This document shows positions 317 through 2,580 of a DNA stretch of 64,000 nucleotides, piece after piece. How positions within the stretch are numbered: the stretch's first letter is position 1; every line of letters starts with the position of its first letter. The notes beneath the pieces are model-generated. The model was not told the DNA's origin. It worked only from the letters and a program-made list of their open reading frames with translations, and ran no database searches. Source of the stretch: a virus; the IMG/VR virus record IMGVR_UViG_3300013093_000020; one strand, given 5' to 3'. A program made the position numbers and the translations under genes.

Positions 317-347
317 ACTAACATCAACAGCAAATAAGGAGCGAACC

Positions 348-1031
348 ATGTTTAAATTACTCAGTACAGCGAATCCCAAAATCCAAAAAGGCACCAAGCT
401 GGGCTATCTCAGCTTCATCCTACACCTTGCGCCAGCAGACTTGAGCGGCTACAATACCTGCCCTAAGGCCACAGCAGGGTGCAAGGCCTCTTGTCTTAAT
501 ACAGCAGGCCGTGGTGGCATGTTCCGCAAGGGCGAGACAACGAACATGATCCAAAAGGCTCGTATACGCAAGACTGAGTATTTCTACAAGGATCGCACCA
601 ACTTCCTAGCAGACTTGAAAGCAGACATTGAGAAGGCCATTAAGATGGCTGACAAGCTGAACTTGAAGCCAGTGTTCCGCTTGAACGGTACCAGTGACTT
701 GAGCTGGGAGAAGTACGGCATCATTGAACAGTTTCCCCAAGTACAGTTCTATGACTACACCAAGGTCTTGGGCCGTAAGATTGCTCACTTGCCCAACTAT
801 CACTTGACCTTTAGCCGTGCAGAGAACAATGAAGCTGACTGCCTTAGAGCGCTGACCGAAGGCATGAATGTGGCCACAGTGTTCGATCGGATCCCAGAAG
901 GTGTGTTTTCAGCAGACGAAACAGATCTGCGCTTCTTAGACGGCAAGAAGGGTGTTATTGGACTCAAAGCCAAAGGTCGTGCTAAGAAAGACTACAGCGG
1001 CTTCGTTATCCGCATCCAGGAGGCAGCATGA
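348..1031 (+). CDS. Gene product 88-like (Gp88 family) Cys-cluster protein
   Basis: Start reassigned from 234 to ATG 348 (downstream of P1, RBS AAGGAGCGAACC). Motifs CPKATAGCKASC, FRLNGTSD, FYDYTK, DxRFLD, GLKAKG recalled as typical of the phage gp88 family. Confidence 0.7.
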   Translation: MFKLLSTANPKIQKGTKLGYLSFILHLAPADLSGYNTCPKATAGCKASCLNTAGRGGMFRKGETTNMIQKARIRKTEYFYKDRTNFLADLKADIEKAIKMADKLNLKPVFRLNGTSDLSWEKYGIIEQFPQVQFYDYTKVLGRKIAHLPNYHLTFSRAENNEADCLRALTEGMNVATVFDRIPEGVFSADETDLRFLDGKKGVIGLKAKGRAKKDYSGFVIRIQEAA

Positions 1032-1093
1032 TATTTTGGCTGGTAGTGCTGGCAATCTTCTTGATCAAGGTGGCATTAATACAACACCTCTAG
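1028..1093 (+). CDS. 21-aa hydrophobic micro-peptide MIFWLVVLAIFLIKVALIQHL (not in the ORF track)
   Basis: ATGA overlap with the upstream stop, GGAGG SD just upstream, single TM-like stretch, fills the gap to P2. Confidence 0.5.
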   Translation: MIFWLVVLAIFLIKVALIQHL

Positions 1094-1094
1094 G

Positions 1095-1123
1095 TTGACA
1101 AGATGCTGGATCGAGACTATAAT
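1095..1123 (+). promoter_or_regulatory. sigma70-type early promoter P2
   Basis: TTGACA (1095-1100), 17 bp, TATAAT (1118-1123). Confidence 0.92.
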
Positions 1124-1156
1124 AGTATTTTAAACAGTTAACAAAGGAGCGACACT

Positions 1157-1486
1157 ATGGTAACAGCAGAACAGATCCAAACAGGCATCATCCAAGCCCG
1201 TGCAGAAGCAACCAAGTTCTTTTACGAGCGACTTGGCGGTGTTGATCAATTTGCCTGTGGTTTTGGTTGGACAGAAGTCTATGTAGATCGTACCAACTCA
1301 AAGCAGGCCAAAGAGTTGATCCGTGCAGGCTTCCGCAAGGACTACAAACCAAAATGCCTGACACTGTGGGATCCAGCAGGCTTGCCTGTACAGAATGTAG
1401 ATGTCAAAGAAGTGGGTGCCACGGCATTGGCCACATATCTACAGGCGCTGGGACTCAAGGCCTACGGTTGCAGCAGATTGGACTAA
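1157..1486 (+). CDS. Hypothetical early protein (109 aa)
   Basis: Directly behind P2, RBS AAAGGAGCGACACT-ATG. Confidence 0.8.
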   Translation: MVTAEQIQTGIIQARAEATKFFYERLGGVDQFACGFGWTEVYVDRTNSKQAKELIRAGFRKDYKPKCLTLWDPAGLPVQNVDVKEVGATALATYLQALGLKAYGCSRLD

Positions 1487-1492
1487 ATGGCG

Positions 1493-1521
1493 TTGACAGG
1501 GCCGCAAGGCCCTGTTATAAT
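1493..1521 (+). promoter_or_regulatory. sigma70-type early promoter P3 with an embedded GCAA-tetraloop hairpin
   Basis: TTGACA (1493-1498), 17 bp, TATAAT (1516-1521); ACAGGGCC-GCAA-GGCCCTGT at 1496-1515. Confidence 0.9.
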
Positions 1522-1552
1522 ATTAACTTAAATACTTTATACAGGAGCGTAT

Positions 1553-2431
1553 ATGAGCAAGGTAGTTACCAGCAAGATGTTATTGGCCCTACAGGCAGAA
1601 CACAAGAGCCTAGAGCAAGAGCCCGTAAAGAAGAACTTGAACGAAACAGACGAAGAGATCATGCAACGATTGAGCGATCGTTTTGAGATCCTAGAAGACA
1701 TGACCCGTGCTGTTAAGAAAGGCGATGTCAAAGCCATGATCGTAACTGGCCCTCCAGGAGTAGGCAAGAGCTTTGGTGTAGAGAAAGTACTCAGCAAGCA
1801 TGATGTGTTCGCTAATGTAGCACAAGACGGCAAGTTGAAGAAGTACGAAGTAGTCAAAGGTGCTATGAGTGCATTAGGACTCTACAGCAAGCTCTATGAG
1901 TACAGCGACCGGAAGTCAATACTAGTGTTCGATGACTGTGACTCAGTGCTGTTAGATGACTTGAGCTTGAACATTCTAAAGGCAGCATTGGACTCAGGCA
2001 AGCGGCGTATGATCCACTGGAACACAGACAGCAGGCTTCTTAAGGATCAGGGTGTGCCCAACAGCTTTGAGTTCAAGGGCGGTGCTATCTTTATTACCAA
2101 CATCAAGTTCGAGCACGTCAAGAGCAAGAAGCTGAAAGATCACTTGGAAGCCATTGAGTCACGCTGTCACTATCTAGACTTGACCATTGACACAGAGCGT
2201 GAGAAGCTCCTCCGTATACGACAAGTAGTACGCGACTGTGGCATGCTTGATGACTATGACTTAGAGGACTATGCCAAAGCAGAAGTAGTAGACTTCATTG
2301 CAGACAATGCGAGTCGTATGCGTGAGCTCAGCTTGCGTATGGTGCTTAAGGTAGCAGACATACGAGTAAGCATGCCTGCTAAGTGGAAGGCTGTAGCAGA
2401 AGTAACCTGTATGCGTAACACAAGAGCGTGA
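1553..2431 (+). CDS. AAA+ family P-loop ATPase
   Basis: Walker A GPPGVGKS, Walker B ILVFDDCD, FITN sensor, SR arginine finger; RBS CAGGAGCGTAT-ATG. Confidence 0.85.
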   Translation: MSKVVTSKMLLALQAEHKSLEQEPVKKNLNETDEEIMQRLSDRFEILEDMTRAVKKGDVKAMIVTGPPGVGKSFGVEKVLSKHDVFANVAQDGKLKKYEVVKGAMSALGLYSKLYEYSDRKSILVFDDCDSVLLDDLSLNILKAALDSGKRRMIHWNTDSRLLKDQGVPNSFEFKGGAIFITNIKFEHVKSKKLKDHLEAIESRCHYLDLTIDTEREKLLRIRQVVRDCGMLDDYDLEDYAKAEVVDFIADNASRMRELSLRMVLKVADIRVSMPAKWKAVAEVTCMRNTRA

Positions 2432-2440
2432 GAGTTTTAA

Positions 2441-2580
2441 GAGCCCCAAGAGGCTCAGTGTCTAGCCAACGATTCGCTCCCGGTAACTAGACACACTTAA
2501 AAGGCACCATAAGCCCGATTCGCTCCCGGCAATGCCTTTTTAGGTCCCCTGGCTACTATGTTGGTCAGGGGATTTTTTTT
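2441..2580 (+). ncRNA. Putative structured small RNA / 3'UTR RNA with two hairpins displaying the same loop (CGAUUCGCUCCC)
   Basis: Stems GTGTCTAG/CTAGACAC (2458-2494) and AAAAGGCA/TGCCTTTT (2499-2540) are unrelated in sequence but each encloses an identical CGATTCGCTCCCGG (2470-2483, 2516-2529); followed by an intrinsic terminator. Confidence 0.7.
2545..2580 (+). terminator. Rho-independent terminator closing the early region
   Basis: TCCCCTGGCTA/TGGTCAGGGGA stem (G-U pairs valid on +) followed by T8. Confidence 0.88.

Follow-up and report, generated by a model that had tools for sequence, protein, structure and literature searches.

The stretch of viral DNA analysed here (IMG/VR record IMGVR_UViG_3300013093_000020, whose 64,000 nucleotides are called the window) comes from an uncultured T4-like giant (jumbo) freshwater phage of ~350-380 kb, related to PA5oct, Atu_ph07 and XacN1. 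Jumbo myoviruses such as these are its nearest cultured relatives, with 40-50% identity, and near-complete related records measure 345-383 kb. Table 1 lists the features of an early block near the start of the window, in which three genes, the last of them encoding an AAA ATPase, each stand behind a sigma70 promoter, and the 3' end forms two hairpins with the same apical loop ahead of a terminator. Our subject is this hairpin element together with the extended Shine-Dalgarno (SD) sequence GGAGCG, here called the tag, which marks the ribosome-binding site (RBS) of all three genes and to which the loop is complementary. The window has no strong terminator between promoter P1 and the loops, and its remainder carries T4-like SSB, UvsX, helicase, terminase, neck and tail genes.

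Table 1. Features of the early block, in window coordinates.
Feature	Position	Strand	Remarks
sigma70 promoter P1	288..316	+	12/12 consensus
RBS tag GGAGCGAA of gp88-family gene	338..345	+	8 bp with loop
gp88-family gene (PF17338, phrog_1617)	348..1031	+	tagged, early
sigma70 promoter P2	1095..1123	+	12/12 consensus
RBS tag GGAGCGA	1146..1152	+	7 bp with loop
109-aa early gene (phrog_22149)	1157..1486	+	tagged
sigma70 promoter P3	1493..1521	+	12/12 consensus; extended -10; inverted repeat across spacer
RBS tag GGAGCG of AAA gene	1544..1549	+	6 bp with loop
AAA ATPase, phrog_1250 (T4 nrdC.10-like)	1553..2431	+	carries the 3'UTR (3' untranslated region) element in most clades
Small leading hairpin, AAGAG-type loop	2441..2456	+	recognisable in 10/37 close relatives
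Hairpin 1	2458..2494	+	outer stem of 8 bp, covarying; internal loop CCAA/GYAA, near-invariant; apical loop AUUCGCUCC of 9 nt at 2472-2480
Hairpin 2	2499..2540	+	apex same as hairpin 1; loop at 2518-2526
Intrinsic terminator	2542..2580	+	strong; ends the early block

An earlier note on this DNA had proposed that the loops are antisense to an RBS motif specific to early genes, and all of its coordinates agree with the window sequence. A 14-mer containing the loop occurs at 2470-2483 and 2516-2529, and no other copy exists in the window at up to two mismatches (chance mean 0.10; 0 of 100 shuffles reach two). The three tags, each behind a promoter that matches the sigma70 consensus at 12 of 12 positions, form the contiguous loop pairs given in Table 1. 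The note was also right that the SD-led replication and late genes use GGAGA, as seen for SSB, UvsX, tail tube, neck and sheath, and GGAGCG is absent from the RBSs of the other SD-led genes that were called in the window, 12 in number. Over the whole window GGAGCG is not enriched (8 copies seen against 10.3 expected); three of the copies are the early RBSs and two are the loops. The described pair of hairpins is recovered as well, since the region folds as two hairpins plus the terminator with a z-score of -4.1. Loop 1 is unpaired at above 0.9, and for loop 2 the ensemble shows partial pairing (0.35-0.37 at three positions).

The hairpins form a genuine, conserved RNA element that is widespread among these phages. 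One scan returned more than 590 related loci, and the group consists of abundant aquatic jumbo phages. Behind the AAA stop codon, one to three loop copies are present in 75 of 98 distinct AAA loci; at the remaining 23 loci AAA is an operon-internal gene, and where members were inspected the operon ends with the hairpin, three genes further on. The loop reads AUUCGCUCC, rarely AAUCGCUCC, with an invariant G-C closing pair, and the next pairs are compensatory (CCG/CGG, GUG/CAC, GCG/CGC, UCG/CGA and CUG/CAG). Eleven aligned copies of hairpin 1 show changes on both sides at each of the eight outer-stem pairs, and slid controls collapse; the stem covariation was reached by 0 of 500 shuffles on four of five measures and by 11 of 500 on the fifth. 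The CGCUCC seed within the loop is unpaired at 0.87, compared with 0.43 when the flanks are shuffled (66 loops). A YUNR U-turn presents the bases after it for fast pairing (PMC6562991). The UUCG of the loop fits such a U-turn candidate, in which the bases presented would be CGCUCC.

Several smaller observations concern the same element. The small leading hairpin is a candidate processing or protein-binding site and could possibly set the 5' end of an RNA. At three loci (L015, L035, L118) the hairpin follows a small Ala/Lys-rich early gene whose own RBS is untagged; it is found behind this untagged gene in further lineages, and therefore the element has moved between carrier genes. In the clade with a helix-turn-helix (HTH) gene (L007, L008, L044, L057) the stretch from the terminator to the following sigma70 promoter contains another short conserved motif, CCGGCACTC. 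The AAA RBS (1539-1554) can fold weakly into a hairpin whose loop holds the tag, a form that would permit loop-loop kissing; this is not general among tagged RBSs. The inverted repeat at 1497-1516 spans the -35/-10 spacer of P3 and could be an operator or the transcript-end hairpin of the upstream gene; similar spacer repeats occur at some early promoters of the related genome G005.

Evidence that tag and loop belong together comes from their joint change between clades, for which the earlier note had proposed to look in related phages. Distant AAA relatives were reached via phage contigs binned in metagenome-assembled genomes (MAGs) and two further scans. Four of these contigs (L244, accession PBPT01000016.1, and L242, L245 and L246), one of them 335 kb long, are binned in bacterial MAGs of unrelated phyla, and the binning is not informative on the host. 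On a quick tree, matched states of the RBS and the 3' element fall on at least six separate clades. The pairs are GGAGCG with CGCUCC in the clade of the window, GAGGGCA with UGCCCUC in what we call the GAGGGC clade, GAGGGCUA with UAGCCCUC, GGAGAGAG with CUCUCUCC, GGAGGAGCAA with UUGCUCCUCC, GGAGUAACUA with UAGUUACUCC or its G-U variant, and GGAGCUA with UAGCUCC; at one locus (L392) the match is 12 nt long. The change is coordinated across clades, and the loop is conserved on covarying stems. Among 111 loci less than 88% identical, the longest complement between the AAA RBS and its own 3' region has a mean of 5.82, compared with 4.69 ± 0.12 and a maximum of 5.22 in 20,000 permutations that ignore kinship; without the GGAGCG clades the values are 5.61 and 4.29 ± 0.18. 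In G010, a genome of the GAGGGC clade, the switch includes the orthologous gp88 RBS, there GAGAGGGCAAACG, and also reaches the late genes for CsgF and curlin, which lie over 300 kb away from the loops (record coordinates). Clades without such an AAA tag are mostly without the adjacent element.

Since RBS and 3' element have changed in coordination in at least six clades, base-pairing is very likely, and from these sequences we would predict with high confidence that tag and loop pair in vivo. The calculated stabilities point the same way. The duplexes of the loop with the three window RBSs have energies of -13.1, -12.3 and -10.4 kcal/mol, compared with -8.5, -7.9 and -7.8 kcal/mol for the 16S tail, and with GGAGA-type RBSs the loop reaches about -5 kcal/mol.

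Genome-wide counts of tagged genes were made in the near-complete relatives G004, G005 and G010 in place of the window phage. As the earlier note had expected, the cognate tag of each genome is more frequent at sigma70-led genes than at other genes in all three (6/49 against 6/347 in G004, 9/50 against 7/407 in G005 and 7/67 against 3/388 in G010). Of the four outcomes that the note had named as refuting its proposal, neither of the two accessible to computation occurred. Within early islands the tag stands on the first gene behind the promoter in 199 of 279 cases and on internal genes in 20 of 118, counts that include homologues and hence non-independent events. In 133 of 219 cases the tag is followed by AA, and therefore the match extends to eight pairs. 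The description of the tag as early-specific holds within the window and fails genome-wide, since late envelope and lysis genes carry it too and tagged genes outside the early region mostly encode envelope proteins. The late tagged genes include a GTA_holin_3TM holin, DUF4337, CsgF, a curlin-repeat protein, a cell-wall hydrolase, a lipase and a nuclease, and an N-terminal hydrophobic segment is present in 6 of 9 non-early tagged genes, compared with 74 of 992 (p 1.5e-5). A late promoter leads a curli secretion module (CsgF, CsgG and a curlin repeat protein) that repeatedly bears either the tag or the anti-loop site described below (L199:1-1124, L532:5079-7176). With transcript limits as predicted, tagged genes are also found downstream of the last loop and terminator (19 and 20 cases, and G010 20302) or 70-300 kb off, and in G005 one tagged block ends at a terminator without loops. 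For the tagged genes that sit after the last loop or far away, the loops would have to act in trans.

A third part of the system came to light when the first scan with the 14-mer also hit the reverse complement of this sequence, just behind the late promoter TAAATA. Each of the eight large genomes checked has at this place a complement of the loop and upper stem, 10-14 nt long. Exactly one TAAATA-proximal window in each of G004, G005 and G010 matches the genome's own apex, over 12-14 nt, while the match to the apex of the other clade is at most 9 nt; the late site is also present in G003 and five further genomes, two of which carry it twice. A dedicated scan found the GGAGCG form in 74 distinct contexts, where it mostly leads csgF, DUF4337 or the gene of a 93-aa membrane protein (phrog_18771), and several of these sites sit 14-50 nt ahead of a second, tagged RBS. 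The site of the GAGGGC clade, AGAGCGUGAGGGC, occurs in 110 contexts with a peak 7-9 nt behind TAAATA and leads the same 93-aa and CsgF families; in about 40 of 78 cases it lies off the RBS, 15-57 nt from the start codon. In about 16 of the GGAGCG-form contexts, all in one subclade, which may represent one or two inherited events, the late promoter lies antisense in the 3' arm of hairpin 1 with no open reading frame (ORF) behind it. Leaderless late genes begin 4-7 nt after TAAATA, and therefore the antisense RNA would start at the complement of the apex. Cofolding of the late site with the hairpin gives -27 to -29 kcal/mol, which is able to open the hairpin. This late anti-loop site accounts for the invariance of the whole 14-mer, including the upper stem that the early RBSs do not touch. 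A reading of the site as a gene-free sponge only was revised, since the site is often itself the RBS of an envelope gene.

Some further features were noted around the late sites. The 93-aa family (phrog_18771; L039:1459-1740, minus strand) is a very common carrier in both clades and would be holin-like in our reading; its nearest named cluster is YvrJ (score 0.89), which we take as a lead only. A cold-shock-like gene adjoins the late site in L197:1-866 and L198:700-913, and a stretch at about 330-620 on the minus strand of L197 is by appearance a candidate for transfer-messenger RNA. Many late genes of the window (2833-63873) look leaderless, with ATG 4-7 nt after TAAATA, and an SD is present in only about 15 of 66 called genes.

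We moderately favour a three-part RNA circuit in which the loops would repress tagged RBSs and late anti-loop transcripts would titrate the loops, so that early shut-off and the expression of envelope and lysis genes are timed; here the repression, the discrete RNA and the decoy and timing roles are what we infer. The phage, which is lytic, would extend the GGAG core of the SD to a private tag, GGAGCG and usually AA, on the first gene behind early sigma70 promoters, and a small set of late envelope and lysis genes would bear the same tag. The 3' end of the early block would fold into hairpins that show AUUCGCUCC. With the build-up of early transcripts, or of a stable 3' fragment, the loops would pair over 6-8 nt with tagged RBSs and outcompete the 16S tail, and initiation would fall. 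Early protein synthesis would be damped by negative feedback, in trans and probably in cis too, and premature envelope and lysis proteins would be held back by the loops. Late TAAATA transcripts would then carry the complement of the loop and upper stem, 10-14 nt long, within their first 10-30 nt. This anti-loop RNA would invade the hairpin and titrate or destroy it, and the tagged late genes would be freed past a threshold, with a sharper onset of envelope and lysis functions.

Several observations weigh against this circuit. The seeds of 6-8 bp are short, and the YUNR motif is not kept in other clades. The L246 contig has GCCCUC loops, yet most neighbouring RBSs there are GGAGCA, with which only bulged pairing is possible; in L180 the AAA RBS is also GGAGCA and the tag is lost, and some GGAGCT-led AAA genes are without the element. 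Several sister clades have the element across the AAA stop codon, and its match there is mostly to the RBS of AAA itself, with one or two genes per locus. Apart from its non-independent counts, the first-gene bias is predicted equally by pairing in cis, and the ORF starts were called by a simple heuristic.

End-to-end pairing in cis, as known from icaR, would account for part of these data. The 3' loops would fold onto the 5'-proximal RBS of the same mRNA, which would be translated mainly during its synthesis, and the late sites would be ordinary targets or incidental. The first-gene bias fits, read-through early mRNAs would end at the hairpins as no strong terminator lies between P1 and the loops, the AAA RBS is complementary to its own 3'UTR motif as such pairing needs, the sister-clade elements, 9-12 nt long, lie over the stop codon and match the AAA RBS, and icaR is a precedent (PMC3868564). 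When the P3 transcript is folded, the intramolecular pairing probability of RBS and loop is 0.003 and 0.09 in a nested-structure fold that cannot model loop-kissing; RNAcofold values for the early leaders were set aside for the same limitation. Out of reach for cis pairing are the tagged genes past the last loop, the G005 block with a loop-less terminator, and those late genes (csgF, curlin and holin) in which tag and loop have switched together, and the late anti-loop RNA is left unexplained. As the full account we consider it unlikely. The two modes are compatible and non-exclusive; cis pairing likely operates alongside trans and may be the ancestral state.

The pairing might instead help expression, by a closed loop that returns terminating ribosomes to the start or by protection of the 5' end from nucleases, with the late anti-loop RNA as the signal for early shut-off. 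The tag stands on the strongest early promoters, from which one expects high output, the element frequently extends over the AAA stop codon and would be opened there by a terminating ribosome, and a late decoy that removes an activator of early genes would be a simple early-to-late switch. We find this rather improbable, since the duplex includes the SD core and exceeds SD:16S pairing in strength, C4 and icaR, the loop-to-SD pairings cited here, are repressive, and tagged late holin and envelope genes would lose their activator when it is needed. Still less probable is superinfection exclusion, in which the RNA of a resident phage would silence the early genes of a newcomer with the same tag and the tag/loop switches would be escapes, like the C4 heteroimmunity of P1 and P7. 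Such a role would suit the clade-specific pairs and the reach in trans, and C4 sets a precedent (PMC12197685). Against it, one tag is common to AAA proteins 63-100% identical, a slower pace than expected of an arms race, the late envelope tags are not explained by exclusion alone, and its molecular step is identical to that of the three-part circuit. A protein or DNA site (an operator, or a RegB- or RegA-like nuclease or repressor site) present in both orientations by chance is barely tenable and largely refuted by covariation: T4 RegB does cut GGAG in early SDs (PMC3014915), the loop is near-invariant within a clade and scans for variant loops on the same closing stem gave chance matches only, but the orientation is fixed (sense at SD spacing, complement in the loops, complement of the complement behind late promoters), all three parts change complementarily between clades, and the stems covary as single-stranded RNA. 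Two further candidates were dropped, an orthogonal ribosome because the main tags retain GGAG or GAGG as their core, with the usual SD spacing, and a CsrA-type decoy because the loops are complementary to GGA sites and not copies of them.

When compared with known systems, two features of a trans-acting anti-SD small RNA (sRNA) are present, an accessible, co-changing seed and targets on other (predicted) transcripts. The C-rich loops of Staphylococcus aureus RNAIII and RsaE also seed SD pairing, through generic UCCC seeds and extended second contacts; in sequence and context they are unrelated to the phage element. The C4 antisense RNA of phages P1 and P7 is a processed cloverleaf, and neither a C4 fold nor a C4 Rfam match was found for the element. 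Like the RNA proposed here, C4 is a phage RNA that acts in trans with loops on the RBS region of phage mRNA, and its sequence-specific pairing underlies heteroimmunity; it belongs to temperate phages and has one target operon, whereas here simple hairpins of a lytic jumbo phage face 10-16 genes of two temporal classes (PMC12197685, PMC8201110). In form the element resembles the Cuckoo/CcsR1-4/alpha-r14 sRNAs of Alphaproteobacteria, in which neighbouring hairpins on variable stems likewise share one pyrimidine-rich anti-SD loop; CcsR is excised from a 3'UTR in front of a terminator, where the phage element also lies (PMC4615179, PMC8034643). Cuckoo RNAs have 2-4 hairpins, and the phage element is likewise multi-hairpin, with 1-3 copies in the clade of the window and up to four motif copies in the GAGGGC clade. 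The Cuckoo loop is a generic CCUCCUCCC, whereas the phage loop AUUCGCUCC fits a private tag carried by genes of the phage itself, and the two change together; CUCC-repeat loops are found only in the GGAGGAGCA and GGAGAGAG sister clades. The neighbour is a DUF1127 gene in the Cuckoo CIN1 subgroup and an AAA ATPase gene, with no DUF1127 gene, in the phage, and a dedicated late anti-RNA would belong to the phage system and not to Cuckoo.

The 3'UTR motif of icaR in S. aureus pairs with the SD of its own mRNA and blocks initiation, as the sister-clade elements might; unlike the phage system it concerns one gene, with no shared tag and no anti-RNA (PMC3868564). T4 RegB offers a parallel in logic, since early mRNAs are marked in the SD (GGAG with a 3' extension) for class-wide inactivation, but RegB itself is a nuclease, a protein dependent on S1, and leaves late mRNAs intact, whereas here the reader would be an RNA and late envelope genes are tagged (PMC3014915, PMC1702504). 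The role proposed for the late site resembles that of prophage AgvB, a target mimic that neutralises the sRNA GcvB (PMC12197685). AgvB counters a host sRNA, while here both RNAs would be the phage's own, separated in time by promoter class, and the late-promoter site has a longer complement to the seed than the targets have.

Rfam returned nothing at the gathering score for the window and ten homologous loci, and a weak match to NsiR1 (E 0.038) covers the terminator only. With blastn of the element against GenBank phages only chance matches of 19-22 nt were obtained and no cultured carrier was found; the HTH-like and histone-like carrier proteins of the element had no match among cultured phages, a locus search based on PA5oct found nothing, and in the regions read of PA5oct, XacN1 and RAS14 there is no dominant tag. 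Variant loops were sought by scans that kept the CCG/CGG closing and a U-tract, with chance matches only; the variants use other apices and were found via the AAA protein. No description of the element was found in the papers searched, and it may have an unnamed entry in two large uncurated motif catalogues (PMC5737381, PMC10690425). With no Rfam match, a different loop and a different context, the element is a member of none of the compared systems; it would be a variant of antisense anti-SD control.

In T4-like phages, class-wide post-transcriptional timing is known via proteins (RegB, RegA) and local RNA structure, and T4 controls the timing of its lysis protein by RegB and an inhibitory structure on the lysozyme mRNA (PMC3014915). 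As a wider and tentative view, about which we are more doubtful than confident, the tag may be an RNA barcode that serves as an infection clock. It would address early host-takeover genes and late envelope and lysis genes, an early 3'UTR RNA would repress both, and a late anti-RNA would remove this reader at a threshold, in effect an RNA antiholin or lysis timer whose parts were re-coded together several times. The natural series of tags, loops and anti-loops provides ready compensatory pairs, so the model is testable by reporters without culturing the phage, and it may be of use as a source of small orthogonal translational repressors for synthetic circuits. If the view is true, joint re-coding of tag, reader and anti-reader could give heteroimmunity between co-infecting lineages, and an RNA that reads a re-codable RBS tag and has its own late antidote would be a new regulatory logic in abundant aquatic jumbo phages.

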